From an uncultured Candidatus Saccharibacteria bacterium (lineage in GTDB: Bacteria > Patescibacteriota > Minisyncoccia > Phycocordibacterales > JAKAEA01): a DNA stretch of 64,000 nucleotides. The notes under the pieces were generated by a model that was not told the DNA's origin, did not search any database, and saw only the letters and a program-made list of their open reading frames with translations. Both the position numbers and the translations under genes were made by a program. Numbering within the stretch: position 1 is the stretch's first letter; the number at the start of each line of letters is the position of its first letter. The stretch covers positions 86,163-150,162 of the forward strand of contig CAZNZK010000002.1 of assembly GCA_964577595.1 (NCBI GenBank), given 5' to 3'. Positions 2,785-33,989 of the stretch are shown here, in pieces.

Positions 2785-2857
2785 GCGCCCATAGCTCAGG
2801 TGGTAGAGCACCTGCCTTTTAAGCAGAGGGTCGCAGGTTCGAGTCCTGCTGGGCGCA
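2785..2857 (+). tRNA. tRNA-Lys (anticodon TTT)
   Basis: Cloverleaf folded by hand. Acceptor gcgccca/tgggcgc, anticodon loop cttttaa, T-arm gcagg-ttcgagt-cctgc. No encoded CCA. Confidence 0.85.
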
Positions 2858-2950
2858 CTTTACAGGACGTAGAAAAAATTTGCCATTTGGCCATTTTTGA
2901 GTAGGATAGCTACAGAGTTCCTGATCTTTCCCTTACTTAAGGAGTTAGCG

Positions 2951-3988
2951 ATGACTATCGCCGCCGAAGAACCAGTTGTGCTGCGGGTGCCGGATTTCCT
3001 TAATCCGACCCAGCAGTTGACCATGCCACTCGTAGAAGTGACTGATTCCAACGCCAACCCCTACGCCGCCCGGCCGAACTTGCACGTACGCATCTTTGCC
3101 CAAACCTCGCCGCCACAGAGCATTAAGTTGTTGCCGGCGCTGGAGTGCCTTTCCCGGGCACATGGACAAGGCCTGCTGTTGAACGTCAACACTCTCGTGG
3201 TGCCCACTTCGGGCAATTACGGCATCGCCGTGGCCACGCTTGCGCCGTATTTTGGCATCAAGCATATTGTGGCGATCGTGCCCAACGATATCGCCCCAGG
3301 CAAGCTCAGTCACCTTGAATTGCTCGGCGTCCACTGCATGAAGCCCAACAGGGCACGAGGTGAAACGAGCTCAAGCTTGGCAATAGTCCAGGCCAAGAAG
3401 CCCGACCACTTGCTGTTCGACCAGTACACCGACCCCGGCAACCAAGCCTCGTTCAAGAAATGGCTCGCGCCGAGCATGTGGTACAAAACCGACCACAAAC
3501 TTACCGTTTTTTGCGCCGCCATGGGAAGTTGCGGCACCATTCGCGGCTGCTACGAATACTTCCAAGAATTAACCAGGCCTGTGACGGTCATCGGCGGGGT
3601 GTGCGACTTCAACGACGATGTCCCTGGAGCGCGAAGCGAGCGCCGCTTGAAACAAATCGGCTTCGACTGCAGCAAAGCCCCCTTCCGCTTGGAAGGCGAC
3701 ATTTCGGCCTTGGCGTCGTACAGCACCAGCAAGCTTCTGTGTCAAAGCGGCCTCGTCGCCGGCCCCAGCTCGGGCTTAGCGCACTTCGCACTCTTACGGT
3801 TTCTTAACCGCCATGAACGCGAGGGCACCCTAAACCAATTCCGGAATGACGATGGCGATGTGGTGTGCGCTTTCGTTTGTGCCGATGACCCTCGGTACTA
3901 CACCGACAAATACAGCACACACCTCCCCGACAATGTCGCCCTCTCGTTTATGCAGCTTATGGAAGCGCCGGGCGACTGGTCAATCTAA
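2951..3988 (+). CDS. PLP-dependent enzyme of the cysteine synthase / Trp-synthase-beta fold (fold type II)
   Basis: Motifs SPPQSIK (PLP-lysine region), TSGNYGIAVA and AAMGSCGTIRG (glycine loop). The start was moved to the ATG at 2951, which is preceded by aaggag. Confidence 0.7.
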   Translation: MTIAAEEPVVLRVPDFLNPTQQLTMPLVEVTDSNANPYAARPNLHVRIFAQTSPPQSIKLLPALECLSRAHGQGLLLNVNTLVVPTSGNYGIAVATLAPYFGIKHIVAIVPNDIAPGKLSHLELLGVHCMKPNRARGETSSSLAIVQAKKPDHLLFDQYTDPGNQASFKKWLAPSMWYKTDHKLTVFCAAMGSCGTIRGCYEYFQELTRPVTVIGGVCDFNDDVPGARSERRLKQIGFDCSKAPFRLEGDISALASYSTSKLLCQSGLVAGPSSGLAHFALLRFLNRHEREGTLNQFRNDDGDVVCAFVCADDPRYYTDKYSTHLPDNVALSFMQLMEAPGDWSI

Positions 3989-4012
3989 CCGAAAGTTCTT
4001 TACAAAGGAAAA

Positions 4013-4049
4013 TAAAAGCGCGGCCCTCGCAGGTCGCGCTTTTTTCTTT
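4013..4049. terminator. Bidirectional rho-independent terminator between the convergent PLP-enzyme and panD genes
   Basis: Stem aaagcgcg/cgcgcttt with loop gccctcgcaggt, followed by ttttttcttt on the plus strand and a T-run on the minus strand. Confidence 0.5.
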
Positions 4050-4062
4050 GCCCGATTTTCGC

Positions 4063-4479
4063 TTACGATGCCTCCAGGTCCTCTGTTACCACAAACATTT
4101 CGTGGAACAGATCGGCGAGATTATTTGACTTAACGTCGATGATTTTATTCTTGTCATCAACAAACACGACGTTGGCCGCGAGATTTTCATATTCGCCACC
4201 ACTGACCCACGCCTCGGCAAGAATAATGACAACATCACCCTTCTGGAAATGATGGGCCGGCGGCTTGCCGTTGAGGCAAATCTGGCCTTCTTTGCCGAGC
4301 ATGGCATAGGTTTGCCAAGTATCGCCATTACGACAGTTATTGATGATAAGCATCTGACACGGCCTGATGCCGGCAGCTTTCATAATGAGCGGGCAAATAC
4401 TGATGGATCCTTTGTATCCAGGATTCGCCTCGGTAACCGTAGCGTTGTGGATTTTGGCCATGCAAACACGAATATTCAT
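4063..4479 (-). CDS. panD: Aspartate 1-decarboxylase (pyruvoyl-dependent)
   Basis: MNIRVCMAKIHNATVTEANPGYKGSISI matches the PanD N-terminus pattern K-hR-TVT...Y-GS (the self-cleavage Gly-Ser site). The start was set at the internal Met aligned to PanD. Confidence 0.8.
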   Translation of the reverse strand: MNIRVCMAKIHNATVTEANPGYKGSISICPLIMKAAGIRPCQMLIINNCRNGDTWQTYAMLGKEGQICLNGKPPAHHFQKGDVVIILAEAWVSGGEYENLAANVVFVDDKNKIIDVKSNNLADLFHEMFVVTEDLEAS

Positions 4480-4569
4480 GGGAATTCCCTTGAAAAAGAA
4501 CAAATGTAACAGACACAGACTGGCACCAAACTACCAGATTTGACAAAATTAGGCAAATTATGTTGAGTT

Positions 4570-5610
4570 TTATTTCGCCGCTTTCCGCACAATACAAAAC
4601 GGGGTCATTTCATCGCTCTGGCCGAGCGGATTATCGCGGAAGAGCTTGCCGATGAATTCCTCGGAAATTTTTCCGGTAGATTTTCCCAAGGAGAAAGCAC
4701 CTCGGTAATTGGCGTCTAGAATAACCGTTTCGCAACCAAGTGCCTCTTGGAAGCGGCGAGCTTCGGCACTTGGCTTATTGGGCGCCAGCTTAGCTGAATG
4801 AGCGTATTCTAAAATAAGAAACGACATTGGGCAGTCGATACTCTTCGCGCGCTTGCCGCAAATTCTGTAAAACATACCGCGAATACCAAACGGCTTCGTT
4901 AGCGCGGAAACTGCGGCCGCAAAAAGAATGCGCGGATAGCCCGTTTCCTCAAGAAAAAGTTGCATGGCCAGAGCCGTACCATGCCCGAAACCATGAAATT
5001 CACTTGAACCATAGTAGTTCCCTACCTTACGAGCCAGGAAGCGCGCTAGCGGTGTTGGCTTAATGGTACCCATATCTACCACGCGCCCTTGAGCTACCGT
5101 CAAAACTTTTTCGCTAATAAAAAGCATGTCGCCCGGTTGTAAATATGGTTGCACGTATTCTTTAAGCACGGAGAGTAAATCGGTATCGTGCAAGGTAATG
5201 GTGCGTGTACGCACGGGCGAGCGTTGGTAAGTTACGCCATCAACGTCAATGACAATTTTTTTACCGGGATTGGCGATGAATTCCGCGGATGGGCGGCGCA
5301 CTGCGGCAATGGGTGCCTCAAACGTAACTTTTTCGCCACGAAAAAGCGCAATGAGTTTTTCAACCGCCGTGCGGATTTGGGTTCGGTCTTGTTTTAGTGC
5401 TGCCCTTGAACGCAACAATTCGGTCACCTCCGTATACAGAATATGCGCCTCGTCAATTCGCTCATTAACAAAAGAAACTTCACTGACAGTTTTGTTATTT
5501 TCAGATAATGCCTTTAAAATGACTGACCCATCTGTTTGTGGTGAATATAAAACACTCAGGCCTGTAGCAGATTTCATGTCTGCGTACGTTAGCGGTTTTT
5601 CTAGCATCAT
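4570..5610 (-). CDS. CofE-like (F420-0:gamma-glutamyl ligase family) protein with an N-terminal extension
   Basis: FISEKVLTVAQGR resembles the CofE VISKAEGR motif; ILDANYRGAF resembles ITDTNGRCFR; C-terminal P..CIVRKA resembles P.VVVRG. Family assignment comes from motif memory only. Confidence 0.5.
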   Translation of the reverse strand: MMLEKPLTYADMKSATGLSVLYSPQTDGSVILKALSENNKTVSEVSFVNERIDEAHILYTEVTELLRSRAALKQDRTQIRTAVEKLIALFRGEKVTFEAPIAAVRRPSAEFIANPGKKIVIDVDGVTYQRSPVRTRTITLHDTDLLSVLKEYVQPYLQPGDMLFISEKVLTVAQGRVVDMGTIKPTPLARFLARKVGNYYGSSEFHGFGHGTALAMQLFLEETGYPRILFAAAVSALTKPFGIRGMFYRICGKRAKSIDCPMSFLILEYAHSAKLAPNKPSAEARRFQEALGCETVILDANYRGAFSLGKSTGKISEEFIGKLFRDNPLGQSDEMTPFCIVRKAAK

Positions 5611-5661
5611 TTTACTTTACCAAAAAAAACCCTATAATCAAAGCGTATTCTGGAAAATTAC

Positions 5662-5733
5662 GCTCCTATAGTTTAACGGATAGAACGCTGGCCTCCGAAG
5701 CTGGTGATGCAGGTTCGATTCCTGCTGGGAGCA
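5662..5733 (+). tRNA. tRNA-Arg (anticodon CCG)
   Basis: Acceptor gctccta/tgggagc, anticodon stem ctggc/gctgg (two G-U pairs), loop ctccgaa, T-arm gcagg-ttcgatt-cctgc. Confidence 0.8.
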
Positions 5734-5795
5734 CACTAAAGGGTACTGCTTAGAAGTTTTAAGCGACCGCGTTTTTAATTCAGCTTCCCGACGAA

Positions 5796-7292
5796 CTACT
5801 CCGCGACGACGCGATGTTCGTGAGTAATGGCGTGTTTCGGCACTCGTATGAGGAGGGCGGCAAAAGCGCCGAGAATAATGACCGTGCCGGCAATTTCAAA
5901 TACTGAAGCGTAACCGGCAACTTGGGCTTTCAAAATAATAAGGCTGGCGAACTGCGCCCTGGCAAGCGGGCCTGTCGCGTTAAGAATGCTCTGCCGCGCG
6001 ATGCGAAGAACATTGGAGTTTATGTTGTTATTAAGAACAGTGCTGAAAATTGCCACGCCGAAAGCGCCGGAAATATTGCGGACAAGAGCAAGCACGGCCG
6101 AAGCTTCACCAATGTCATCCTTCGGCACGGCAACAGCCACGAGATTAGTGCGCTGGGCCATACCGAAGCCAAGGCCAAAAGAAAGCACGCAGAGCGGAAT
6201 GATTATGTCCAACGCGGTTGATCGCGGGTCAATGTGCGAGAGTAAAAACATGCCTATGCCGGCCATAACCGTGCTGGCAAAAATAACATAGGAAGGCTTT
6301 ACTCTACCGATAAGCAGACCACCTAGCGGCGAAGCGGCCATAAGGGCCACTGCCAGCGGAATAAAAAGGTAGCCGGTTTGGGTGGCGTTGTAGCCAAGAA
6401 ACGTTTCGGCAAAAATAGGAATGAGAAAGATCGCGCCAATAAGCGCCATGAAGACGATAAAGTTGTTGATGAGAGTACTCACAAACGTGCCGATTTTGAA
6501 AAAATCCAAATTAATAATCGGTTCAGCTTGATCTTTTTCCACAAAATAGAAAGCGATGGAGAAAATGATAACGATTGCATACCAAAAAGTACTCGCCAGC
6601 GAAAGCCAACCCCAACTCTGGCCCTGATCCAGCACAAGCGTGAGCGCAAAAAGAGCTGCCCCAAGCGTTATGGAACCCCACCAATCAAAACGTACACTGC
6701 GCTTCTCGCCAACCGACTCATTGATGTATTTAAGCGCAAGGAAAAGACCAATAATGCCAAAGGGAATATTAATGATGAATACGGAACGCCAATTAAAACT
6801 ATCAATGAGCGGGCCGCCGATTAATGGGCCAAAAACGGAAGCCACAGCAAACGCGCCCGACCATATGCCGAGAGCTTGAGCACGCTCCTTACCATTTGTA
6901 AAAGTGACCGCAAGAATGGCCATGGCTGTGGGATAGTCGGCCGAAACAGCGAAACCTTGGATAACGCGAAAAACGATCATGGACGAAAGATTCCAAGCAA
7001 TAGCACAGAGCCCTGAAGCGACAATAAAGCCGATGAAGCCGATGAGATAAATGCGCTTGCGGCCAGCAGTATCGCCGAGCTTGCCCCAGACCGGCACAAA
7101 AACCGCATTCGCCAGAATATAGGCGGTGGAAATCCAGGCGGCATTACTGACACTCACGTTGAAATCGCCGATTATTTTTGGCAGAGCCAAATTGACCACG
7201 GTTTGATCTAAACGCCCCAGAAACGTGCCGAAAATAACCGTGACGAGAACTATCCAGCGAAGGCTGTTATTTTGTACTACTGGTATATCCAT
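5796..7292 (-). CDS. MFS transporter, DHA2 (EmrB/QacA-like) drug efflux family
   Basis: 498 aa with about 14 predicted TM helices. N-terminal GRLDQTVVNLALP and G.LGD..GRKR motifs. Confidence 0.85.
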   Translation of the reverse strand: MDIPVVQNNSLRWIVLVTVIFGTFLGRLDQTVVNLALPKIIGDFNVSVSNAAWISTAYILANAVFVPVWGKLGDTAGRKRIYLIGFIGFIVASGLCAIAWNLSSMIVFRVIQGFAVSADYPTAMAILAVTFTNGKERAQALGIWSGAFAVASVFGPLIGGPLIDSFNWRSVFIINIPFGIIGLFLALKYINESVGEKRSVRFDWWGSITLGAALFALTLVLDQGQSWGWLSLASTFWYAIVIIFSIAFYFVEKDQAEPIINLDFFKIGTFVSTLINNFIVFMALIGAIFLIPIFAETFLGYNATQTGYLFIPLAVALMAASPLGGLLIGRVKPSYVIFASTVMAGIGMFLLSHIDPRSTALDIIIPLCVLSFGLGFGMAQRTNLVAVAVPKDDIGEASAVLALVRNISGAFGVAIFSTVLNNNINSNVLRIARQSILNATGPLARAQFASLIILKAQVAGYASVFEIAGTVIILGAFAALLIRVPKHAITHEHRVVAE

Positions 7293-7933
7293 ACTTTCGC
7301 GGACATACCATTCTTCAATTCAGGATATTGATCGGGGTTGAAACGCACCTTTACGTCAAAATCCTGCTCTTCACGCTGGTCGGAAATATTAAAAACAATG
7401 TCGCTTTGGTGGGAAGTAGCGCTTACTTCGTCAATCACACCAACGTACTTTTTAGAACCGAAGGCATCAACAGTAAACACAACCCTATCCCCCACGTGAA
7501 TACGACTTAAGCCCTTATCCTCCTCAACTTGCGCGTCAACACGCAACTGAGTAGGGTCAATCACCGTAAGCACGGCCTGGCTAGGGGTGAAGAGTGCTCC
7601 AATATCGTTGTTTTCAGAAATAACAATAGAATTTACTGTTGTTTTAATGAGCTGATTTCCAACCTGGGCCACAGCATCGTTAGCTTTTACATAATCACCG
7701 TTATTCACGTATATGGCCTGTAAAGAGCCCGCAGTGGCTGGCGCCAAAGAAATCACTGGCGCGCTAATAACGGCACTGTCGGTGTAAACGCGGGAGTTGG
7801 AGATTCTTACATACAGAAACAGACTGGCCGCGCCTATGAGCGCAATTGAAAATACGATACCCCAAAACGTCCGGTTTTTAAGGAGACTTGCGATTCTTGA
7901 TTTTTTCTGAGGTTGATTGTTTTCTGGAGGCAT
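7277..7933 (-). CDS. HlyD-family membrane fusion protein (EmrA-like)
   Basis: N-terminal TM anchor, then a biotinyl/lipoyl-like beta region (AVISAPVISLAP...AIYVNNGDYVKANDAV). It overlaps the MFS gene start by 16 nt. Confidence 0.65.
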   Translation of the reverse strand: MPPENNQPQKKSRIASLLKNRTFWGIVFSIALIGAASLFLYVRISNSRVYTDSAVISAPVISLAPATAGSLQAIYVNNGDYVKANDAVAQVGNQLIKTTVNSIVISENNDIGALFTPSQAVLTVIDPTQLRVDAQVEEDKGLSRIHVGDRVVFTVDAFGSKKYVGVIDEVSATSHQSDIVFNISDQREEQDFDVKVRFNPDQYPELKNGMSAKVWIYQ

Positions 7934-7946
7934 ATTTTATTGTGCG

Positions 7947-9422
7947 TTATTGTGTTTGACCGAATGTAATAACCTCTTGGTTGACTGAAAGTCCTCCAGT
8001 AACTTCTACCCAGGTACTCATGCCGCTGGCGTCCACACCACGCGCCCCTGTAGTAATCGGTGTTTTCTTGACTACGCCCGCCGCAAGAACAAGTACCGAG
8101 CTTGCGCCGTTGTCATTAAGAACCGCGCTTTCAGGTACAGCCAGCACATCATCGTTTTCGCCGACTACGATATGTGCCGTGGCGCTCATACCATCTCTGA
8201 TACGCGAATCGGCCTGGTCAAATTGAAGGGTCGCTTTATACATACCCGCGCCGCTTATTACCGTTTGACTCTGATCAACACTTATAACCGTTGCCGGGAA
8301 GATGACGGCACTGCCATAAGCCGGAAGAGTGACATTTGCTTCCTGACCAACGGCAATAGTGGCCACGTCGCTCTCGGAAACATACGCGTCAACTTGATAG
8401 GGGGTATTAGAAATAAGATGAATGATCGGCGACGGCACGGCGGCGGAAATAGCCTCACCGACATTGCCCGTTTGAGCGGTAATGACCCCGTCAACTGGCG
8501 CGACAATATCATTTTGAACGATTTCGGTTTGGACGGCAGCAACACTGGCTTGCGCCTGGGCGATTTTTGCCTGCAGAGCGTCGGTATTTTGAGGCGTAGT
8601 GGTGAGGAGAGTGTTGTTAGTCGCGGTAATCTCGGCAGTAGCTGCCGTAAGAAGCGTCGTAGCCGCATTCATGGTTGCCAAGTCACCAGTGACCGTAGCC
8701 TGCACTGAAGAAGGCGCGAGCTGAGCAAAGGCGGTAACGGCTAATGAAAGGTTATTCATAAACCCCGTAATTGTGGCTATATAATTTTTCGCATCAGAAA
8801 CAAGGGCTTCCGCCGAGGTAGAGCTGGCAGTTTTCAATTCTGCCGCCCAAGCGTTAAGCGCTTTGTGCGACATAACGTCGCCTGTTTCGATTTGAATTTC
8901 CTGGCCCTGTGTTTGTGTAGAAATAAGTAAACCGGGATTACCCAACGATTGCGGATTGGAAAAGAACGTGTCCGAATCGTTTTCAACGGCATTGACGGCT
9001 TTAGTGTAGGCATCGGCCACTGCGGCCACCGCATTCCTTTCCGCATTAGTATAACCAATAGTAACCGAGGTGTTATTGTCCGCCCAATTAGCCTTGGCTC
9101 CGGCAAGTGCGGCTTGAGCAGCCTCCAACTGAACATTCAGACTATTTTGGTTAAGTTCAGCCAAAATCTCCCCCTTCTTAACAGAATCGCCCACAGCCAC
9201 GTTAATGGCGCTAATCTGCCCCGACTGCTGAAATCCCAAATCAACTTCTGTTCCTGCAGTTATCATACCGTCGGCGCTTACTATATGTCGAAGATTTATA
9301 GTATGATCGACAATTGTGCTGTACAAAGACACATCCGGCTTAGGCAACGCAAAAAGAGCGTACGCGATAATCGCACAAGCAATAACCATGGAAGTAGCTA
9401 TAGTGAGAATCTGATTTTTCAT
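7947..9422 (-). CDS. Efflux periplasmic adaptor (HlyD/MFP family) with a long Ala/Thr-rich coiled-coil
   Basis: Signal-anchor, GQISAINVAVGDSVKKGEILAEL lipoyl-like hairpin, Ala-rich coiled-coil, and C-terminal beta-barrel segments (VPESAVL...VLVL). Confidence 0.6.
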   Translation of the reverse strand: MKNQILTIATSMVIACAIIAYALFALPKPDVSLYSTIVDHTINLRHIVSADGMITAGTEVDLGFQQSGQISAINVAVGDSVKKGEILAELNQNSLNVQLEAAQAALAGAKANWADNNTSVTIGYTNAERNAVAAVADAYTKAVNAVENDSDTFFSNPQSLGNPGLLISTQTQGQEIQIETGDVMSHKALNAWAAELKTASSTSAEALVSDAKNYIATITGFMNNLSLAVTAFAQLAPSSVQATVTGDLATMNAATTLLTAATAEITATNNTLLTTTPQNTDALQAKIAQAQASVAAVQTEIVQNDIVAPVDGVITAQTGNVGEAISAAVPSPIIHLISNTPYQVDAYVSESDVATIAVGQEANVTLPAYGSAVIFPATVISVDQSQTVISGAGMYKATLQFDQADSRIRDGMSATAHIVVGENDDVLAVPESAVLNDNGASSVLVLAAGVVKKTPITTGARGVDASGMSTWVEVTGGLSVNQEVITFGQTQ

Positions 9423-17648: not shown

Positions 17649-18191
17649 ATGTCTGGACACAACAAATGGTCAAAAATTAAACGCCAAAAGGGCGCCGAAG
17701 ACGCGGCTAAGAGTAAACTTTTCGGTAAGCTCGTGCGCGCCATTACTGTTGAGGCAAAAAAGGCTGGTGTTAGCTCTATAGGCAAAGGAGCGCCCATTTC
17801 TGCCGGCTTAGAAACTGCTATTAAAAAAGCCCGTGAAGCAAATGTTCCCAACGACACCATAGAGCGCGCTGTAAAAAAGTCTAGCGAAAGCGCACAAATG
17901 GAAACGGCTGTTTATGAATCCTACGGCCCCGGCGGTTGTGCACTCATTATTGAAGCCCTTACCAGCAATAAAAATAAAGCTGCCCAGGAAATTAAAGCAA
18001 TTTTAGCAAAGCATGATCTCGCATTGGCCGGCCCCGGCTCTGCCACCTGGGCTTTTGAAAAAACCCATGATGGCTGGGTAGCAAACACGCCCGTTACCGT
18101 CAACGAAGAGGATGGAAAAAAACTCAGCGAGCTTGTTGACGAACTTGAAAACAACGACGAGGTTCAGGATGTGTACACGAATGCAGAATAA
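17649..18191 (+). CDS. yebC: YebC/PmpR-family transcriptional regulator (short form)
   Basis: MSGHNKWSKIKRQKG...KSKLFGKL N-terminus, and C-terminal EVQDVYTN. Confidence 0.8.
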   Translation: MSGHNKWSKIKRQKGAEDAAKSKLFGKLVRAITVEAKKAGVSSIGKGAPISAGLETAIKKAREANVPNDTIERAVKKSSESAQMETAVYESYGPGGCALIIEALTSNKNKAAQEIKAILAKHDLALAGPGSATWAFEKTHDGWVANTPVTVNEEDGKKLSELVDELENNDEVQDVYTNAE

Positions 18192-18678
18192 AACACGCGT
18201 CATTGCTATTGACCCAGGATACGAACGTCTTGGTATTGCTATTTTAGAATCCGACCTGGTTTTACATTCAAGTTGTTTTCAAACAAAAAAATCACTTCCC
18301 CACCACGCCCGCCTCGCCGCAGTTCATAAAGAGCTTGCACGGCTCATTTCGGAATTTCAGCCGAACGCTTTGGCCACCGAAACACTTTTTTTTAGTAAAA
18401 ACCAAAAAACAGCGATGGCGGTGGCGGAAACTCGCGGCGTTATTCTGGCTCTAGCAAGCACACAGGGTTTGAATATTTACGAATACTCGCCCGCTCAGGT
18501 AAAAATCGCCGTTACTGGTCACGGTGCCAGCGATAAAAAGCAGGTGGCCGTTTTAGTAAGCAAACTCATCGTACTTCCTCATGTGCCGAAGTATGACGAC
18601 GAATATGATGCTGTGGCTATAGGCCTCACTTGTTTTGCTCATGAAAAATTCAGTAAAAAAGACTTTTCCACAGCCTAG
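18181..18678 (+). CDS. ruvC: Crossover junction endodeoxyribonuclease RuvC
   Basis: RVIAIDPGYERLGIAILE catalytic Asp region. The start was set at the in-frame ATG (MQNKTRV), which overlaps the yebC stop by 11 nt. Confidence 0.85.
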   Translation: MQNKTRVIAIDPGYERLGIAILESDLVLHSSCFQTKKSLPHHARLAAVHKELARLISEFQPNALATETLFFSKNQKTAMAVAETRGVILALASTQGLNIYEYSPAQVKIAVTGHGASDKKQVAVLVSKLIVLPHVPKYDDEYDAVAIGLTCFAHEKFSKKDFSTA

Positions 18679-23020: not shown

Positions 23021-24130
23021 CTATTTATTAATAGGCATTACTAAGTAGAGAAAAGAGCGGTCGTTGACACCACGAATAACAAGAGGACGGCTTAAACCAT
23101 TGAATTCTAAAGAGAGACTGTCTGCTTCAACAGAACCGAGGCAGTCGGCCACGTATTTATGGTTGAAATTAATCGCTAAATCCTCACCCTCACACACCAC
23201 GTCAAGAGTGTTGGAGCTTTCTCCAACATCGGGGTTTTGAGCGATAATAGTAAATTTTTTCTTTCCAGGAAACACAGAGAATGAGAGTTTGTTGAACTTA
23301 TCGGAAAAAATAGTGGCCATTTTTAGTGTTGTAACAAAATCCTGCTTAAGAAGCGTGACGGTAGTTTTTGCCTCCTTAGGAATGATTTGATGGTAGTCGG
23401 GGAAAGTGCCATCAATGAGGCGTGAAGTAAGATACAAACCGTTAGTATCATCAAGAGCAATTTGATTCTTACTAACCATAATCTTTACATCGCCTTTGAT
23501 TTGCTCCAACACACGAACAATGTCAGGCATGTTCCGAATAGGAATAAGGAGATTGGGGATATCTAAAGCTTTTTTGAGACGAATTTTCTTTTCTGCCAAG
23601 CGGAATGAGTCGGTGGCGGTAAAAATCAAACTGTCACCCTCGGTGTGGATAAAAATACTAGAAAGCTCAGGCTTAATACTAGAAGCCGCACCACTATACC
23701 AAACAGACTTCAAACCACGGACAAAATCACTGGCGGGTAAAGAAAAGGTTTTACTCTCTTCGGTAGAAAGTATGGGTATTGTGGGGAAATCTTCATGATT
23801 AAAGGTTTTAATAACAGTTGAATTGTGTTGGGTCACCACCTTAAGGTTTCCATCAACAGCCTCAAGCACCACGTTTTTAACATTAGGAAGACCAGAAAGA
23901 AAAGAATTAAGGATAGAACCAGGAATAACAATAATGCCGGGTTGTTCAACTTTTACAGGAACCTTAATTTCAATACCCAAATCAAGATTAGTAGCTTTTA
24001 TAAAAAGCTCCCCGTTTTTGGCCTCAAGAAAAATTCCACTTAAAATAGGTAGGGTGGCGTTCTTGGCGGTGATTTTTTCCGCTTTTGTTATCGCTTCCCC
24101 CAGTTTTTCTTTTACACATTCTATTCTCAT
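23021..24130 (-). CDS. dnaN: DNA polymerase III beta sliding clamp
   Basis: 369 aa with a three-domain beta-clamp pattern (MRIECVKEKL...ILSGIFLEAKNGEL...). Downstream of dnaA. Confidence 0.95.
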   Translation of the reverse strand: MRIECVKEKLGEAITKAEKITAKNATLPILSGIFLEAKNGELFIKATNLDLGIEIKVPVKVEQPGIIVIPGSILNSFLSGLPNVKNVVLEAVDGNLKVVTQHNSTVIKTFNHEDFPTIPILSTEESKTFSLPASDFVRGLKSVWYSGAASSIKPELSSIFIHTEGDSLIFTATDSFRLAEKKIRLKKALDIPNLLIPIRNMPDIVRVLEQIKGDVKIMVSKNQIALDDTNGLYLTSRLIDGTFPDYHQIIPKEAKTTVTLLKQDFVTTLKMATIFSDKFNKLSFSVFPGKKKFTIIAQNPDVGESSNTLDVVCEGEDLAINFNHKYVADCLGSVEADSLSLEFNGLSRPLVIRGVNDRSFLYLVMPINK

Positions 24131-24318
24131 TTTTTTATATAAAGAAATACTACTACTATTACCGCTGTGGATATGGTGATATCTCTAAAATAACCTTATT
24201 TTAAGAGCTAATACTATAAGATTCTTTTCCCCACTTCTTCCACACTATCAACAATTTTGTTTTTTGCCAACCTTTATTGATTTTTTATCCCCCACACCTC
24301 CCCACTCTTTCCACAGGT
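24131..24318. promoter_or_regulatory. AT-rich dnaA-dnaN intergenic region with a DnaA-box-like site (candidate oriC part / DUE)
   Basis: tgtggatat at 24166-24174 (8/9 match to TGTGGATAA), flanked by AT-rich sequence. Confidence 0.35.
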
Positions 24319-25665
24319 TTAAATCATGGAACGTATTTGTTTTATTTCTTCCGCCAAAAAATGATCGGTTTTGAGTTCGTTTTTTATTTTTTCACACGAG
24401 TGAATAACCGTGGTGTGGTCGCGACCGCCAAGTTTTTGGCCAATAGAGGGATATGATTCCTCAAATTCTTCACGAAGGATGTACATTATTACTTGGCGCG
24501 GCTTCACCACCTCCTTCCGGCGGCTTTTTTCATAAATAAGGGATTCTTTTATGTTGTAGAAGTCGGCGATGGTTTTAATAACCTCTTTGCTTGATATTTT
24601 ACGTTCCGGCTTGGCGCTGTTTTTGGTAATATTTTTTATTTCATTAATGGTCAATTCTCGGTTGTGATGCCGGGCCTGCATAATGACCGCGTTTAAAATA
24701 CCCTCTAACTCGCGGATATTACCCTCTACGCTTGACGCAAGGTATGCCACCACCTCAGGGGCTACTTCAAAATTTTGAAGCTTCGCCTTCGCTTGAAGAA
24801 TAGCCATGCGTGATTCTACGTCTGGTTGGGAAATGTCAGCCACCATTCCAGCAGAAAAGCGTGATTTTAAGCGGTTTTCTAGGTTAGGGATGAAGTTGGG
24901 GTGTTTGTCGGAAGAAAAGACAATCTGCTTATTGTCATCAAAAAAACTGTTAAAGACGTGAAAAAGCTCCTCCTGACTTTTTTCCTTGCCGGCGAAGAAC
25001 TGAACGTCATCTACTATAAGCACGTCATAGTTTCGGTATTTCTCCTTAAAACTATTTGCCTTTCCTTGCTGGACGGCATTAGTGTAGTCTATGGCGAATT
25101 TTTCTGAAGTAAGATAAAAGACTTTTTTCGTGGTGGCGGCTTTTATGAAGTTACCTACCGCCTGAATAAGGTGGGTTTTGCCGCGGCCGGTGTCGCCGTA
25201 AATAAAAAGTGGGTTATATGAAATACCAGGTTTTTTTGCTACAGCCTGGGCTGCGGTGTGGGCAATTTCATTAAATGGGCCTATAACAAAACTTTCAAAG
25301 GTATAGCGAGGATTAAGGTTGTCGTCTTTATTAATATAATAATCCGCCAAAGGTAACTCACTGGTGGGGTTGAAAAAGGTTGGTTTTCGGTCATTTTTCT
25401 CCTGTTTTTCTGGGCCATTCTTAGTGATACTGTATTCTATATTACGCACTTCAACAGTATTGCGTAAGCAACGGATCAAAAACTTGTGGAATTTATTGAG
25501 CAGCCAGTCCTTAACAAAGATGTTAGGGACATTTACATATACAATACCATCTTCTATTTTGGCGATGTGGGTGCTTTTAAACCACATCTTGAAATTGGCG
25601 GCAGAAACATTTAATTCTATTTCAACCAAAACCGAATCCCAGAGTTTTTTAAGGTCAAGAGGCAT
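24319..25665 (-). CDS. dnaA: Chromosomal replication initiator DnaA
   Basis: AAA+ Walker [11 protein letters not shown], Walker B LIVDDVQF, and C-terminal DNA-binding domain (VIMYILRE...LGGRDHTTV). Confidence 0.95.
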
Positions 25666-26274: not shown

Positions 26275-27002
26275 GCCACGGTTTTTTCGCCACTATTTTT
26301 TATATTCCACTCTACAACGCACTTATCTTGTGCGTGAATTTTCTTTCTTGGCACAATGCTGGCCTAGCAGTGATAATACTCACGCTTATTATTCGTTTTG
26401 TTCTCTTCCCGCTCTCTCGCTCCGCCATCAAAACCCAGTTGCAAATGAAGCAGATAGAGCCGGAGCTGAAAAAAATCCGCGATACGGTTAAGGATAAGCA
26501 AGAACAGGCTCGGCTTACTATGCAGGTATATAAAGAGCGCGGCGTTAATCCTTTTTCAAGTATTCTTCTCCTGCTCATCCAGTTGCCCATTCTTATTGCC
26601 CTCTATCAGGTTTTTCGCAGTGGTTTGCCTAAGATTGATCCAACCATTCTCTACTCTTTTGTGGCGGCTCCAGGTGCGTTGAGTATGCATTTTCTCGGCA
26701 TCAACTTGCTTGGCAACAGTGTCATTTTGGCCTTATTTGCCATCGCCACGCAGTTTTTTCAGCTTCAGCTTGCTTTGCCGAAGGTGGAAAAAGCCAAAGA
26801 GCGCTCTTTTCAGAACGATTTGGCCTATAGCATGAATGCTCAAATGAAATATATCTTCCCTCTTATTTTGTTTCCTGTTGCTTATATCTCGCCGGTTATT
26901 GCACTCTACCTTACAGCGAGCAACGCTTTTATGATTCTTCAGGAGTTGTTTGTGCGCCGGCGTTTAGCGGCCGCTTTAGAGGCGAAGAGCCCACAACGAT
27001 AA
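26271..27002 (+). CDS. yidC: Membrane protein insertase YidC (short Gram-positive-like form)
   Basis: WHNAGLAVIILTLIIRFVLFPL with conserved TM core. The ATG overlaps the rnpA stop (ATGA). Confidence 0.85.
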   Translation: MSHGFFATIFYIPLYNALILCVNFLSWHNAGLAVIILTLIIRFVLFPLSRSAIKTQLQMKQIEPELKKIRDTVKDKQEQARLTMQVYKERGVNPFSSILLLLIQLPILIALYQVFRSGLPKIDPTILYSFVAAPGALSMHFLGINLLGNSVILALFAIATQFFQLQLALPKVEKAKERSFQNDLAYSMNAQMKYIFPLILFPVAYISPVIALYLTASNAFMILQELFVRRRLAAALEAKSPQR

Positions 27003-28217
27003 ATCGCTCTTATTGGTGAAAATTAAATAGTCGTCCTTCGGCGAGGCCGTGAGGTTCTCCACGTCAATTGCTTGGCCGGCCTGCTTGCTTACATTGGCCA
27101 CCGTGCTTACTTGGCCGGTATTGGCATCAACGCGGACAATACTGTCAGAGAAAGAAACTAATCCTTGATACCAGGCGTCTGGGTAGTGTCCTCCCGGAAT
27201 GCCTTGCGGCATAGCGCAGTAGAGCACGCCTTTCTGTACTTGTGACCAGGCACATTTGTCGGCGATAGTGTTTATCCCGAGCGCTTCGCTACTACCTGTT
27301 TTACTATTTAAGATCGAAAGCGTTGGTGTGTTTTCAGAATACGCGACAAAATTTGTACTCGGGTCAACATTTATTACTAAGCCGGGAATGTCGCCCAAAA
27401 TGCGCTTTACGGTGCCTGTAGTAGAAAGGAAATAAAGATAGCCACGAGCTACGCTTGCCGGCTTGGTGCTGAGGGCGATAGTGCTGGCGGCCGGCCATTG
27501 CACGTTCCAATCACTAATTGCGGAGGTAAAAATAGTGCTGGCTTTAGTACCACTGCCGCTGGCGATTTTACCCGTGACACCGTCGGCGCTGGTAGTGAGA
27601 TAGAAAATCTGGGTTTGGGCTGGGTTGGCGACTACTGTTTCTATGTTGTCTGGGAGAAAACTGCCGGAGATAATAGGAAGGGTTGAAGTTGTTGTGCTGG
27701 TTTTTTTCTGGGTGATCAGGGTGGCACTATATGTTTTTATAGTTGATTCTTTACTGTCTAAGTAGCGTAAAAGTGTTGTGCTGGCGCCGAGCCACAACGA
27801 GCTGTAAATTTCCGGAATAGTTTGGTCGGAAATGGGAGTGATGGCCACTGTGCTGGAGGTGGCCAGAGCAATAGAATACATGTGACCAGTAGCGCGGTCG
27901 GTTAATTGTACAAACTCCCCCGCTTTGGAACTTGTAACGCCGGCGCCGGCAATTGGCGAAGCATAAAGGTGGGTTAGCGTTTGAATAGTGACCGTTGTTG
28001 CTGCTACGGATGTGCTTGTAGTGCCGGTTGTTTGACCAGGTGAAACCGTTTGATTGCCACCAGAAACAACAGGGAATGGTTGGTAGCCGGTAGGGTTGGT
28101 CCCCTGCCCGTTCGTGCTTCCCGGTGTGGCGCTCTGGCGGAAAAAGAGTAGGTACCCTGCTATTCCTGCCGCTATCAGGAAGAACACTACTGCGCCGATG
28201 AGAATTTTTTTTGTCAT
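26976..28217 (-). CDS. Hypothetical membrane-anchored extracellular protein (last gene of the T4SS-like operon)
   Basis: N-terminal TM helix, then a Thr/Ser-rich beta-rich domain. It overlaps the yidC 3' end convergently. Confidence 0.45.
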   Translation of the reverse strand: MTKKILIGAVVFFLIAAGIAGYLLFFRQSATPGSTNGQGTNPTGYQPFPVVSGGNQTVSPGQTTGTTSTSVAATTVTIQTLTHLYASPIAGAGVTSSKAGEFVQLTDRATGHMYSIALATSSTVAITPISDQTIPEIYSSLWLGASTTLLRYLDSKESTIKTYSATLITQKKTSTTTSTLPIISGSFLPDNIETVVANPAQTQIFYLTTSADGVTGKIASGSGTKASTIFTSAISDWNVQWPAASTIALSTKPASVARGYLYFLSTTGTVKRILGDIPGLVINVDPSTNFVAYSENTPTLSILNSKTGSSEALGINTIADKCAWSQVQKGVLYCAMPQGIPGGHYPDAWYQGLVSFSDSIVRVDANTGQVSTVANVSKQAGQAIDVENLTASPKDDYLIFTNKSDLSLWALRL

Positions 28218-28234
28218 GGTGGTTGGTAAGTAAT

Positions 28235-28708
28235 TTAGACGTTTGTTTGTACTGCTGCCTGGTTAATTTGATCAAGCACATTACCATTGTTGGTTGAGCT
28301 GTCCCCAGCTTGAGTGGGCGATAATGTTGAGTTTGTAGAGTTTACTTGGGTAAACGGATTATTCAGGAGGCTGGGATTGATGGTGGTAATAAGAATATAT
28401 GAAAAAGCCAGTAAAAGAAGGCCAACAATGGTGCGCTGAATAATTTTAGTGCCTTCTTTTTGTTTATCCACGTTCCCTGGGCTTGTGAGGCGCACGATGC
28501 CACCCCACACAATAAAGAAAACCGCTAACACGATGCCGAGGGAAATAAGCACTTCGGCCATAGTGGTGATGTAGGCAATCGGATTACTGGTATCAATATT
28601 GGTTAGTGTTGTGTTGGACTGACCGGGCAGTGGTGTTAAAAGCTGATAGCAATTAAAGTCGCTTGTGCCGCTTGTTGGATTGCAGTTTTGGTTGGTAGTA
28701 GCGGCCAT
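28235..28708 (-). CDS. VirB2/TrbC-like pilin candidate (two hydrophobic helices)
   Basis: 157 aa. Two long hydrophobic segments (VLISLGIVLAVFFIVWGGIV and IVGLLLLAFSYILITTI) after a polar leader. Located in the T4SS-like operon. Confidence 0.4.
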   Translation of the reverse strand: MAATTNQNCNPTSGTSDFNCYQLLTPLPGQSNTTLTNIDTSNPIAYITTMAEVLISLGIVLAVFFIVWGGIVRLTSPGNVDKQKEGTKIIQRTIVGLLLLAFSYILITTINPSLLNNPFTQVNSTNSTLSPTQAGDSSTNNGNVLDQINQAAVQTNV

Positions 28709-28711
28709 ATG

Positions 28712-29710
28712 TTATTGACTAACCGCAGTAAAGCCTACACTTACGCCAACATTGCCCGTTTGAAACGGTTTGGCGCTATTAGTGGCCGTTACCGCAACAC
28801 TGGAAGTACCGCTTTGGTTCGCGGGGGGAGCCACCACTAAAACTTGGCCAGTTTGGCTGGTGACGGACGTGCTGTTTATACTCCACTGGAACGTTGCGGT
28901 ATTGGTGTAGGGTGAGGTGCTATCAAAAAAGTAGGGTGTGGCATTAAAGCCCGTTTGGCCCGCCAGGGAGAGTGCAGAGCCAAGGGCTTTATTGAGCAGG
29001 GTGCCGTAAAGAGGGCTCTCTTGGTAGAGAATAACGTTTGGATTGGTGCCGGTGAGCGTAATGCTGTTTTGGGCCGTTAAAGAGCCATCAGCCGATCGGG
29101 CTGTGACTGAGAGGTTAATTGGCTTTAAAAGGATACTGCCAGTAAGTGTGATGGTATTTTTTCCACTGCCGGAGACGTCGGGCATGGCGCCGCCATCAAG
29201 TTGCCAGGTGTAGACCGCATTTTTGGGATTGGTGAGGGCAAAAGTGGGCATGGCCGTAACCGTAATGGTTCCTTGAAATGGAAAAAGTGCTTTGCCTAAA
29301 TAAAAAGGTGGCACATACGAGTGTGCTTGCCACAAAAGATCTACGCCAGCAGGGACAATGGTTGCACTCTGGGTAATGACCGCTCCTTTTGTTGTGGTTA
29401 CTGTAGCGGTCACCGTTGAATGAGAACCTGTTGTACCAGTGGTCATTTGAAACGAGGCCTGCCCCACCCCACTTGCTTGACGAGTGCCGTTAACCGTCCA
29501 AACGATAGTGGCCACATTCAAGTCGTCTTGATAATCCTGCAAAGTAAAACTCACATTCGTGCCCGGCGCTGGGTATTGTGGTGACACAGTCATGCTTAAG
29601 CCGCCCTGGCCAAGTGAGGAAAGCGCGCTAAAATCAACGCTTTGAGCGAGAGCATGCGCGGGAGATAAAAAAGTAAGCGCCGCTACAACCATAAGAGCTG
29701 TCCTTTTCAT
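28712..29710 (-). CDS. Secreted repeat protein (signal peptide, Ig-like beta-rich repeats)
   Basis: Signal peptide MKRTALMVVAALTFLSPAHALA, then Thr/Ser/Gly-rich repeated beta segments. Confidence 0.45.
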   Translation of the reverse strand: MKRTALMVVAALTFLSPAHALAQSVDFSALSSLGQGGLSMTVSPQYPAPGTNVSFTLQDYQDDLNVATIVWTVNGTRQASGVGQASFQMTTGTTGSHSTVTATVTTTKGAVITQSATIVPAGVDLLWQAHSYVPPFYLGKALFPFQGTITVTAMPTFALTNPKNAVYTWQLDGGAMPDVSGSGKNTITLTGSILLKPINLSVTARSADGSLTAQNSITLTGTNPNVILYQESPLYGTLLNKALGSALSLAGQTGFNATPYFFDSTSPYTNTATFQWSINSTSVTSQTGQVLVVAPPANQSGTSSVAVTATNSAKPFQTGNVGVSVGFTAVSQ

Positions 29711-29747
29711 AGCTCTATTTTAGCATATTGACACCCCCCACAACTGT

Positions 29748-30122
29748 TTAAATGGAGTAATCTAAATGGTTCTGTTGTTGTAGCCACGCTCCGTATTCTT
29801 TAAGTTGCGTATGATATCTGGCGCGCGCAGCCGCATATACTGCAAGCACATCTACTACCCAGCCTAAAATATCAGCATATGGTATAAGACCAACAATAAA
29901 TCCTAGAACATAGCCAGCAATCACACCTTTCGTGTATTTAACGCCGATAATTTTGTACCAGAAACCAAAAATAGCGCCAATAAAAAAATCACCAACCCCA
30001 CTCGCTACCCAACCTGCAAAGGGAAGAAAATCTACGCCGAATTGGATCAGATCCACCAATACTGCAAACATAAGCAAGAGCGTCAGCATCCCTTTACTGA
30101 TAGGCATCTTAGGTTTCTGCAT
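29748..30122 (-). CDS. Small polytopic membrane protein
   Basis: 124 aa with 3-4 hydrophobic segments. It ends 2 nt upstream of the VirB4 fragment. Confidence 0.4.
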   Translation of the reverse strand: MQKPKMPISKGMLTLLLMFAVLVDLIQFGVDFLPFAGWVASGVGDFFIGAIFGFWYKIIGVKYTKGVIAGYVLGFIVGLIPYADILGWVVDVLAVYAAARARYHTQLKEYGAWLQQQNHLDYSI

Positions 30123-30123
30123 G

Positions 30124-31917: not shown

Positions 31918-31918
31918 A

Positions 31919-32560: not shown

Positions 32561-32613
32561 GCCGCTATTGTAGCATTTTTATCCAGCACCACTCAGTTTT
32601 TAGCTCAAAAGCG

Positions 32614-33051
32614 CTACTTTGTATTTGTCCTGGCATCGCTCGTTACGGGGTTTTCCGCCTGGCGCACGTCTAAAGTCCAGGCCAAATCCTTCAACTTGCT
32701 GTCGCCGAGCTTTGGAATGAATGAGGTTGGCATTTCTGTTTCATTTTCCGCTGTTGGCAGAGCCACATTCTGTTCCTCCTTGTGCCAGATGTAGAGCTTG
32801 GGGTGGAGTGTGTAGTTGAACCATGATTCCATAGCGAATATAAAAGGCCGATTATTGATTTTATAGAAAGCTAAAGCCAGAGAAAATCCCAGAATTACTA
32901 AAATTGGCACAGTAAAAAGATACCAGGGCAAAAAAAGATATAGAGCAATAGAGGCGCCAATACCGCCAGCCACGTAAATAAATTGCTTTAGGGTGAGTGG
33001 CCCGAAGATTTTATCCTCAACCTCAATGAATTGTGGTACTTGGTAACGCAT
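32614..33051 (-). CDS. PrgI/VirB3-like small membrane protein
   Basis: QFIEVEDKIFGPLTLKQFIYVAGGIGASIALYLF is the typical PrgI-family N-terminus plus a TM hairpin. It sits immediately upstream of VirB4. Confidence 0.55.
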   Translation of the reverse strand: MRYQVPQFIEVEDKIFGPLTLKQFIYVAGGIGASIALYLFLPWYLFTVPILVILGFSLALAFYKINNRPFIFAMESWFNYTLHPKLYIWHKEEQNVALPTAENETEMPTSFIPKLGDSKLKDLAWTLDVRQAENPVTSDARTNTK

Positions 33052-33068
33052 GTGTGCTTATTATAGCA

Positions 33069-33986: not shown

Positions 33987-33989
33987 GTA

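Follow-up and report, generated by a model that had tools for sequence, protein, structure and literature searches.

The 64-kb stretch of DNA analysed here (64,000 nucleotides of contig CAZNZK010000002.1, positions 86,163 to 150,162; hereafter the window) comes from a Patescibacteria (Paceibacterota) chromosome and carries, between two tRNA genes, three genes coding for a pyridoxal 5'-phosphate (PLP)-dependent enzyme, a decarboxylase resembling PanD and a ligase resembling CofE. We propose, at a probability of roughly 50%, that this trio constitutes a three-step module of the Paceibacterota comprising beta-replacement, decarboxylation and nucleoside triphosphate (NTP)-dependent amide ligation. 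It is also possible, although we put this forward only tentatively and at clearly lower odds, that the genes belong to a widespread pathway, undescribed so far, for a 2-aminoethyl sulfur compound bound as an amide (either of taurine or of cysteamine, for example a low-molecular-weight thiol of the gamma-glutamyl-cysteamine type or a decoration of the envelope), which would operate in Paceibacterota and, with swapped enzymes, in soil bacteria. The original prediction, made from the sequence of the window alone, had already put forward the general idea of beta-substitution, decarboxylation and amide ligation, and the comparative evidence fits that idea. Since Patescibacteria have minimal genomes with very little biosynthesis, a three-enzyme module that is kept in many of them likely matters for their biology.

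ARAGORN and the list of open reading frames (ORFs) confirmed that exactly three long ORFs lie between the two tRNA genes, as had been predicted. The families named for the three products were recovered with Pfam (PALP, Asp_decarbox and F420_ligase), each protein being divergent and scoring below the NCBIfam equivalog cut-offs. The block is laid out as follows (window coordinates; aa, amino acids):

2785..2858, + strand: tRNA-Lys, anticodon UUU (ttt), left bracket (ARAGORN); also found beside the module in the relatives L006 and L009.
2951..3988, + strand: fold-type II PLP beta-replacement enzyme of the aspergillomarasmine A (AMA)-synthase/CysM type, 345 aa (Pfam PALP, E = 8e-24).
4014..4043, no strand assigned: probable bidirectional intrinsic terminator, a G+C-rich hairpin preceded by an A-run and followed by a T-run (terminator scan).
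4063..4479, - strand: PanD-fold pyruvoyl-type decarboxylase with a remodelled substrate pocket, 138 aa, entry P0401 (Pfam Asp_decarbox, E = 3.9e-30).
4570..5610, - strand: CofE-fold carboxylate-amine ligase homolog, 346 aa (Pfam F420_ligase, 28.5 bits).
5662..5734, + strand: tRNA-Arg, anticodon CCG (ccg), right bracket (ARAGORN); it adjoins the CofE-like gene in L006, L009 and L054.

The PLP ORF opens at a TTG codon at 2897, and the ATG at 2951 is the start in the exact database entry, P0121. The PLP gene and the PanD-like gene are convergent, with the hairpin (a stem of 12 pairs, 7 of them G-C, also recovered as an inverted repeat) between them, and the CofE-like and PanD-like genes are co-directional with a spacing of 66-90 bp, the latter having an alternative TTG start at 4503. 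Scanning 45 large ORFs of the window (nearly all of those of at least 150 aa) against Pfam or NCBIfam revealed no pantothenate, coenzyme A (CoA) or F420 gene, in agreement with the original prediction that no such genes accompany the trio and that it does not represent canonical CoA or F420 biosynthesis. In particular, neither panB nor panC, and none of cofC, cofD, cofG, cofH and fbiC, was present in the window or among the recurrent neighbours described below.

To begin with the conservation of the trio, a pattern scan of one genome per GTDB species yielded 129 relatives of the CofE-like protein, of which 80 loci were kept; all are from Patescibacteria-type or unclassified-bacterium metagenome-assembled genomes (MAGs) except one 2.6-kb contig in an Acidimicrobiales bin. 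Within the fetched flanks of up to 10 kb around the CofE-like gene, we found a PanD-like gene in 50 of the 80 loci (in 32 within 500 bp of the ligase gene), a PLP gene in 38 and both in 36. When considering the 40 loci with at least 5 kb on both sides, the corresponding numbers were 28, 20 and 20. No other neighbour family occurred in more than 14 of the loci upon all-against-all clustering. Dozens of other genomes have these genes side by side as well, so the adjacency is not due to chance, and the view of the three genes as a unit that also occurs elsewhere is thereby borne out. The three genes also form one-strand operons in the order PanD-PLP-CofE (L127, L141 and L151), and in one CPR (candidate phyla radiation) pair, L001/L002, a 3'-phosphoadenosine 5'-phosphosulfate (PAPS) reductase gene is co-directional with the PLP gene at a distance of 5 bp.

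The PanD-like and CofE-like proteins are, moreover, fused in some lineages. Three proteins of 472-488 aa (P0017, P0062 and P0093) contain both Pfam domains, and single ORFs spanning the two were found in L001/L002, L025, L034, L037, L042 and L045. In P0017, P0062 and P0093, the full set of catalytic residues is present in the PanD part, position 54 is Phe and the N-terminus of the ligase follows without a break. After self-cleavage, the pyruvoyl-bearing chain would be expected to remain covalently joined to the ligase. These fusions are the strongest evidence that the amine released by the decarboxylase is a substrate of the ligase. We found no description of the module, or of either subfamily, in the literature on Patescibacteria/Parcubacteria and on the AMA-synthase structures 8H4Q/8H4H.

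Next, we examined the PanD-like protein, which matches Pfam Asp_decarbox (PF02261) at 104.5 bits against a cut-off of 25 and has aspartate decarboxylases as its only PDB matches (best, M. tuberculosis 2C45; E = 8e-13), and which scores below the NCBIfam panD equivalog cut-off (TIGR00223; 87.4 bits vs 106). It resembles PanD in fold and size, and an alignment to E. coli PanD of 37 family members taken from the loci revealed that Lys9 and His11 are kept in 35/37 members each, and Tyr22, Gly24, Ser25, Thr57, Tyr58, Asn72, Gly73 and Asn112 in 37/37 each; the self-processing site Gly24-Ser25 and the catalytic residues are present in the window protein too. By contrast, Arg54 is replaced in all 37 members (Phe in 17, Leu in 9, Thr in 5, Ser in 5 and Pro in 1), the PDB alignments placing a Thr at this position in the window protein. 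Further changes in the family are Phe55 to Trp (37/37), Ser56 to Arg/Gln (36/37), Trp47 to Thr (24), Asn (11) or Asp (2), His77 to Arg (30/37) and Ala74-Ala75 to Pro-Pro (36/37 and 37/37, respectively). In a published structural survey, Arg54, Ala74 and Ala75 are listed among the strictly conserved residues of aspartate decarboxylases, substrate specificity is ascribed to Arg54, and the active site is described as small (PMC3314653). As judged from the alignment, the processing and catalytic machinery of the family is intact and its specificity pocket remodelled. Since the PanD residues listed above are kept, the protein is most likely a pyruvoyl decarboxylase that acts on a free alpha-amino acid; with Arg54 gone, the pocket altered, panB and panC partners missing and a CofE-fold ligase fused or adjacent instead, its substrate is probably not aspartate, and we infer a decarboxylase of some other amino acid.

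The CofE-like protein is outside the F420 and folate ligase families. It reaches 28.5 bits with Pfam F420_ligase (cut-off 25), the match being restricted to residues 137-197, as compared with 21 bits against the 180.65 needed for NCBIfam cofE (TIGR01916) and 17.5 against 350 for the FolC2-like TIGR04132, an NCBIfam model for a putative folate-metabolism gamma-glutamate ligase related to CofE. In a Foldseek search with its AlphaFold model (predicted local distance difference test score (pLDDT) 80; predicted template-modelling score (pTM) 0.73), A. fulgidus CofE was the only significant PDB fold match (2G9I, 2PHN and 7ULD; E = 8e-7 to 5e-6, probability 1.0), with target-normalised template-modelling scores (TM) of 0.51-0.56 and an identity of 17-19%. 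The CofE-like assignment of the original prediction thus stood up both to profile hidden Markov models and to fold comparison. At the level of sequence, the profile of the family retrieved no PDB sequence at E <= 1, and a distant member likewise retrieved no CofE sequence in the PDB. CofE itself uses GTP and Mn2+ to generate an acyl phosphate, to which the amine of glutamate is then coupled (PMC10861534). Given the modelled fold, the chemistry of the CofE-like protein is probably also of the CofE type, i.e., the protein is probably an NTP-dependent, amide-forming ligase that proceeds through an acyl phosphate.

When compared to CofE and FbiB's N-terminal domain (PF01996; 2PHN/7ULD), the protein shares the fold, and the N-terminal motif region of its core fits the Pfam profile. 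It differs from CofE and the FolC2-type enzymes in an extra N-terminal domain of ~110 aa, in a Pfam match of 61 residues only and in failing both NCBIfam models. It further differs from CofE in its partners, a decarboxylase and a PLP enzyme, in hosts with no F420 pathway in view, and in the proteins to which its relatives are fused. The conserved catalytic core comprises residues ~110-345; the domain formed by residues 1 to ~110 is variable, and many loci match the window query only from about residue 110 onward. In fold, this N-terminal domain weakly resembles the substrate-binding domain of DnaK (E = 0.03-0.6, TM ~0.1), which was judged not meaningful.

A word-indexed search returned 1601 homologs of the CofE-like protein at E <= 1e-3. 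The best 119 non-self matches, from Patescibacteria, have identities of 64-76%, an unusual degree of conservation in this phylum, and the homologs with a named source are proteins from MAGs of Patescibacteria, Paceibacterota or Minisyncoccota. When 50%-identity representatives were searched exhaustively with HMMER, 782 clusters were obtained. Distant CofE-like domains are fused to asparagine-synthase modules (5 of 10 tested), PlsY, an M20 peptidase, Amidase_3 and a PgdA-type deacetylase, which hints at amide chemistry on envelope or amino-acid carboxylates. The neighbours of these distant homologs are heterogeneous (gatCAB, S15 and M55 peptidases, Amidase_3, aminoacyl-tRNA synthetases), with no consistent partner. 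Outside the CPR, the CofE-like domain is often C-terminal in proteins of 650-940 aa with a full asparagine-synthase module (GATase_7 + Asn_synthase; P0266, P0274, P0282, P0312 and P0348), and in L085 (6266-11953) a gene of this AsnB::CofE-like architecture, which appears to be uncharacterised, lies directly upstream of gatC-gatA-gatB. Separately, two unannotated human faecal contigs labelled 'Bacteriophage sp.' (MT835656.1, 5930-6679; MT838774.1, 2197-2886) code for homologs of the CofE-like core of 31-33% identity.

The PLP enzyme scores below all NCBIfam CysK/CysM cut-offs (TIGR01139, TIGR01138 and NF008735; 77-92 bits vs 351-413, CysM being 92 vs 413) and below that of SbnA (TIGR03945; 72.2 bits vs 349.95). 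No SbnB partner, i.e., no match resembling ornithine cyclodeaminase, was found among the annotated recurrent neighbours. Its best PDB match in a phmmer search was 8H4Q/8H4H (E = 1.1e-31; E. coli CysM, 1.3e-20), named in the Foldseek output as AMA synthase in its apo form and with O-phosphoserine (OPS). The AlphaFold model (pLDDT 91) gave the same ranking as the sequence, with 8H4Q at E = 1.8e-24, TM 0.82 and 27% identity. Most trio-linked PLP enzymes also score better to AMA synthase than to CysM, for instance those of L001 (211 bits and 39% identity vs 102 bits) and L044 (199 vs 115 bits). AMA synthase is therefore the closest characterised relative, followed by CysM. Of the 'CysK/SbnA-like' label in the original prediction, the assignment to the fold-type II PLP family holds, whereas 'SbnA-like' is imprecise, given this ranking and the context elsewhere, which points to a sulfur nucleophile.

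The PLP lysine, substrate loop and Gly-rich loop align to E. coli CysM (2BHT) as SIK/SVK, TSGNyG/TSGNTG and MGScGT/MGTtGT, respectively, and K59, S87, G88 and N89 are invariant across 31 homologs. With AMA synthase (8H4H/8H4Q) the enzyme shares the N[IV]K[SI][LM]PALNML lysine motif, the SGN loop, the Gly-rich loop and the C-terminal CxDxPxPYxDxY. AMA synthase condenses OPS with the amine of L-aspartate, and SbnA and Fda4 act likewise with glutamate and alanine (PMC12751119). From the shared motifs, the module enzyme presumably uses the aminoacrylate chemistry of AMA synthase, and possibly depends on OPS as well. It differs from AMA synthase in that it is only 27-39% identical, has no rhodanese domain and occurs in a context of sulfur nucleophiles rather than aspartate. 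AMA synthase is also not known to pair with a decarboxylase, unlike the PLP subfamily of the module.

This pairing became apparent outside the CPR. Two homologs of the PLP enzyme, each 43% identical and each followed by a PLP-dependent group II decarboxylase, are on megabase contigs, which also carry hydrogenase and sulfite-reductase genes and hence are not from CPR organisms. Scanning metagenomes with the PLP-enzyme alignment gave 80 further loci, mostly Joint Genome Institute (JGI) metagenome records. Among the 37 well-flanked loci (non-CPR or metagenomic, with the PLP gene flanked by at least 1.6 kb on each side), a PLP-dependent group II decarboxylase lies within 3 kb in 28, a PanD-like gene in 4 and neither in 5; a decarboxylase of either family thus adjoins the PLP gene in 32/37. 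The non-CPR decarboxylase belongs to Pfam Pyridoxal_deC, is non-homologous to the PanD-like protein, and is a member of neither of its nearest NCBIfam families, diaminobutyrate decarboxylase (169 bits vs 900) and PanP (138-152 vs 606).

Recurrent neighbours in the 80 metagenome loci were an AsnB-like protein (15 loci), a TupA-like ATP-grasp protein (PF14305, 126 bits; 12 loci), a 418-aa protein without a family match (11 loci) and the PAPS reductase CysH (270 bits, above cut-off; adjoining the PLP gene in 10 loci). In L092, L104, L124 and L126, an operon of sulfite reductase, CysG (siroheme synthase) and the decarboxylase converges on the PLP gene. The coupling of one PLP subfamily to two unrelated decarboxylase families and to several unrelated ligase types argues for a conserved pathway with enzyme displacement, and the genes of sulfur assimilation that recur nearby speak for a nucleophile that is sulfite or sulfide. 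Outside the CPR, the pair of PLP enzyme and group II decarboxylase looks like an uncharacterised sulfur-amine pathway, possibly leading to taurine or cysteamine. The loci L092-L173 are soil or peat metagenome loci (examples: L164, 7505-10921; L124, 10001-15679).

Taken as a pathway, the module would begin with the PLP enzyme forming an aminoacrylate from O-phospho- or O-acetyl-serine and adding a nucleophile to give a beta-substituted L-alanine, as suggested by the family, the active-site motifs and the context; with sulfite or sulfide as the most likely nucleophile, the product would be cysteate or cysteine. The PanD-fold enzyme, after self-cleavage at Gly24-Ser25 to generate its pyruvoyl group, would then remove the alpha-carboxylate of this amino acid, rather than of aspartate, to leave a 2-substituted ethylamine of the taurine/cysteamine type. 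The route would thus probably run from cysteate to taurine or from cysteine to cysteamine. Finally, the CofE-fold ligase, in view of its fold and of the fusions of its relatives, would activate a carboxylate with NTP as an acyl phosphate and join it to the new amine as an amide; candidate acceptors are glutamate and a carboxylate of the cell envelope. The second and third steps are linked physically by the fusion proteins, and the first and second by a conserved adjacency that is kept even with the non-homologous PLP decarboxylase. In the tentative sulfur-amide pathway shared with soil bacteria, the steps would be kept and the enzymes interchangeable: a pyruvoyl PanD-fold or a PLP decarboxylase, followed by a CofE-fold, an ATP-grasp or an AsnB-type ligase.

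Several observations weigh against the proposed module or its sulfur chemistry. Which nucleophile and which acceptor are used, and in what order the steps follow, are points that we infer, and AMA synthase, the nearest characterised relative of the PLP enzyme, uses an amine and not a sulfur nucleophile. A decarboxylase of the sulfonate cysteate might be expected to retain a cationic residue at position 54, and the Arg/Gln of the family sits at 56. In the genome set, PAPS reductase is adjacent in one CPR lineage only. The PanD-like gene was not found in the flanks of about one-third of the CofE-like loci, nor the PLP gene in those of about one-half, so other proteins may serve as partners of the ligase too. 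The ligase is very highly conserved (median identity 63%), which could point to a macromolecular substrate. Lastly, its NTP- and metal-binding residues were not alignable to those of CofE, only the first ~60 residues of the core fitting the Pfam profile.

The alternative that survives best, which we nevertheless regard as unlikely, is an aminopolycarboxylate or metallophore route. Here, OPS and the amine of an amino acid would give an N-(2-amino-2-carboxyethyl) amino acid, the PanD-like enzyme would decarboxylate its 2,3-diaminopropionate (Dap) end to a 2-aminoethyl amine, and the CofE-like ligase would amidate the product, following the chemical logic of staphyloferrin B or ethylenediaminedisuccinate (EDDS) with different enzymes. 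The closeness of the PLP enzyme to AMA synthase in both sequence and fold is in line with such a route, as AMA synthase, SbnA and Fda4 all join OPS to an amino-acid amine (PMC12751119), and a cationic beta-substituent would explain the loss of Arg54. Some CPR lineages also have metal-related genes close to the trio: a P1B heavy-metal ATPase (TIGR01525, 422 bits) in L022, L031, L035, L039, L057, L063, L082 and L084, an Nramp-like gene in L020, L026 and L081, Nramp together with FUR in L003/L005 (precomputed Pfam), and VIT-like genes in L021, L027, L062, L067, L071 and L075; in the window, a major facilitator superfamily (MFS) efflux system adjoins the module. These divalent-metal genes may be functional partners (thiol/metal chemistry or a metallophore) or may reflect merely shared synteny, and their adjacency to the trio falls largely within lineages that share synteny. 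On the other hand, the recurrent non-CPR neighbours are PAPS reductase, sulfite reductase and CysG rather than siderophore genes, no SbnB-like or nonribosomal peptide synthetase-independent siderophore (NIS) synthetase genes were seen, and the small PanD active site (PMC3314653) speaks against a bulky tricarboxylate substrate.

We also consider it improbable that the PanD-like enzyme makes beta-alanine, as in the original prediction, with a CofE-like ligase that links a carboxylate to beta-alanine or some other amino acid, and with the PLP enzyme tailoring a partner amino acid, to yield a non-canonical pantothenate-like or peptide-like metabolite. This version would agree with the strong Asp_decarbox match, with the presence of all catalytic and self-processing residues, with the use of aspartate by AMA synthase and with PanP, a PLP-dependent aspartate 1-decarboxylase, being among the best NCBIfam matches of the non-CPR decarboxylase. 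Beta-alanine formation is doubtful, however, because Arg54, reported to be strictly conserved and to determine specificity (PMC3314653), is replaced in 37/37 members along with the coordinated pocket changes at Trp47, Phe55, Ser56, Ala74, Ala75 and His77, and because the score does not reach the equivalog cut-off of panD. The match to PanP is far under the cut-off of that model and is equalled by the diaminobutyrate-decarboxylase match, and the window has no panB, panC or coa genes.

Similarly low is the chance that the PLP enzyme is an independent cysteine synthase and that the PanD-like and CofE-like proteins cooperate on their own on an unrelated substrate, for example a carboxylate of peptidoglycan or of a protein. 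The PLP gene is, as noted, not in the flanks of about one-half of the CofE-like loci, and it evolves much faster than the ligase gene (median identity across loci, 29% vs 63%). Genes of the cysteine regulon (cysH, sulfite reductase and cysG) adjoin it elsewhere, and the distant fusions to Amidase_3, a PgdA-type deacetylase, PlsY, an M20 peptidase and AsnB are also in line with this reading. Nonetheless, an amino-acid decarboxylase from one of two non-homologous families adjoins the PLP gene in 32/37 well-flanked loci, PanD-PLP-CofE single-strand operons exist, and the PLP slot has been retained in the window even after replacement of the gene. The last point follows from its composition: the G+C content at third codon positions (GC3) of the PLP gene is 0.725, an outlier against a mean of 0.477 +/- 0.057 for 21 other window genes (~4 standard deviations). 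Its product is 45% identical to the PLP enzymes of L006/L009, which occupy the same slot, as compared with 72% for the CofE-like protein. The simplest reading is that the PLP gene of the window looks like an in-place replacement by a homolog from a higher-GC donor, which argues that the slot is functionally required.

The original prediction had also taken the tRNA bracket as an integration site and hypervariable context, and the evidence contradicts this: the module is not a recently inserted islet and is probably conserved vertically. We therefore give very little credence to a recent horizontal insertion at a tRNA gene with no conserved function in the lineage, in spite of the two bracketing tRNA genes and the foreign GC3 of the PLP gene. 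The nearest relatives, L006 and L009 (gene order: tRNA-Arg(ccg), CofE-like, PanD-like, PLP, tRNA-Lys(ttt)), have the same bracket with one or two extra genes inside, and a SpoU methyltransferase gene beyond it is common to the window, L006 and L009. Between the two tRNA genes of the window there is no integrase gene, and no att-like direct repeat was found, the sole repeat being the 85% similarity of the T-arms of the two different tRNAs. The PanD-like and CofE-like genes have native composition (GC3 of 0.57 and 0.47, respectively), no plasmid matches were obtained, matches to phage being limited to the two weak 'Bacteriophage sp.' ones described above, and the module is widespread in Paceibacterota. 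Proximity to tRNA genes is nonetheless somewhat enriched. When compared to random gene blocks from the same loci, CofE-like blocks have a tRNA gene within 400 bp on either side in 12/79 cases (7.0 expected; P = 0.028) and tRNA genes on both sides in 4/79 (0.83 expected; P = 0.0014), the latter being a point in favour of insertion, and the tRNAs concerned differ between lineages. The tRNA-adjacent blocks are those of the window (2785-5734), L006, L009, L011, L030, L036, L041, L043, L047, L054, L055 and L065.

That the CofE-like protein glutamylates a cofactor (F420 as CofE does, or folate as a FolC2-type enzyme) beside incidental neighbours is hardly credible despite the CofE fold, the F420_ligase match and the existence of an NCBIfam model for a CofE-related folate ligase, given the cofE and TIGR04132 scores far below cut-off, an identity to CofE of 17-19%, a window with no F420 genes and a decarboxylase fusion for which cofactor glutamylation does not account. 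We also considered and rejected a CoA salvage route (cysteine to cysteamine, then ligation to phosphopantothenate in place of CoaBC): the window contains no coaD, coaE, coaX or other CoA gene, and the annotated recurrent neighbours have no CoA-family match. Phosphopantothenate is kept merely as one possible acceptor.

The proposed module has parallels in characterised systems. For the capsule of C. jejuni, serine phosphate is decarboxylated by Cj1436, and the resulting amine is used by the C-terminal domain of Cj1438 to amidate glucuronate, in reactions run with ATP (PMC12409886). This is the logic of the second and third steps proposed here, in which an amino-acid derivative is decarboxylated and the amine joined to a carboxylate as an amide, and the 12 soil-metagenome loci in which TupA-like ATP-grasp genes adjoin homologous PLP/decarboxylase pairs extend the likeness. 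The capsule enzymes differ in being non-homologous to the CPR set (a PLP decarboxylase as opposed to the pyruvoyl PanD fold) and in having no PLP beta-replacement step before them. The amidoligase domain of Cj1438 is described in the literature as an ATP-grasp, in contrast to the CofE fold of the CPR module. Staphyloferrin B is made by SbnA/B, the PLP-dependent decarboxylase SbnH and the NIS synthetases SbnE/F/C. It likewise combines a CysK-family, OPS-dependent enzyme with a decarboxylase giving a 2-aminoethyl amine and with amide-forming ligases; SbnH and the ligases are, however, non-homologous to those of the module, in which neither SbnB nor a citrate/alpha-ketoglutarate logic is seen.

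The enzyme folds and the logic of the pathway are thus known, and the specificities, the combination and the product would be new. The labels that the proteins carry at present ('aspartate decarboxylase', 'cysteine synthase' and 'F420 ligase') wrongly imply pantothenate and F420 metabolism in organisms that appear to lack the two, when possible roles of the module are in sulfur or thiol chemistry, envelope modification or metal handling. If the sulfur-amide pathway were true, the PanD fold would gain a non-aspartate function and the CofE fold one beyond the glutamylation of cofactors. The comparative pattern amounts to a clear hypothesis that can be tested directly, the three proteins being small and soluble.

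Immediately to the right of the module, a promoter-like site at 5611-5638 (+ strand; 10/12 in a promoter scan) lies upstream of tRNA-Arg, followed by a possible exporter:

5796..9422, - strand: DHA2-family MFS efflux permease (5796-7292) and two membrane-fusion/adaptor proteins (7277-7933 and 7947-9422), identified with NCBIfam.

The matches in this region were efflux_EmrB (297.6 bits; cut-off 230.2), EmrA-like and RND_mfp (153 bits), the second adaptor being 491 aa long. These genes adjoin the module and may or may not belong to it; upon neighbour clustering, the family was not a recurrent neighbour of the trio in other loci. The host group is usually considered single-membraned, and here an efflux permease with membrane-fusion proteins stands next to the module.

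The Pfam/NCBIfam scan identified the window as the chromosomal origin region of its host. It contains genes for replication, repair and recombination (DnaA, DnaN, PolA, RuvB, RuvC, UvrD and an XerC/D-type recombinase), for RNA metabolism and translation (TsaE, TyrRS, KsgA, PNPase, CCA enzyme and RNase Y), for envelope and secretion functions (PBP1, YidC and a type-IV-secretion-like block), and for ClpP. The genes dnaN and dnaA are adjacent (23021-25665), indicating that the window spans the replication origin region. A block of ~13 kb, at about 26976-40461, comprises large ORFs (413, 332, 213, 305, 853, 715, 304 and 276 aa) almost without Pfam matches, the exceptions being a type IV secretion system (T4SS) pilin (28235-28708) and a TraG-like P-loop ATPase (30124-31917), and looks like a type-IV-secretion or conjugation-like apparatus. 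A cluster of four tRNA genes (Arg-tcg, Gly-gcc, Pro-tgg and Gly-tcc; 55982-58174) adjoins the gene for the CCA-adding enzyme (54452-56023). We also observed that the ORF of the YebC/TACO1 family (17649-18678) is short at 180 aa, with its second Pfam domain matched over the first third only, and that the RuvC ORF overlaps its end by ~80 nt; this may reflect a truncation, a frameshift or a mis-called start.

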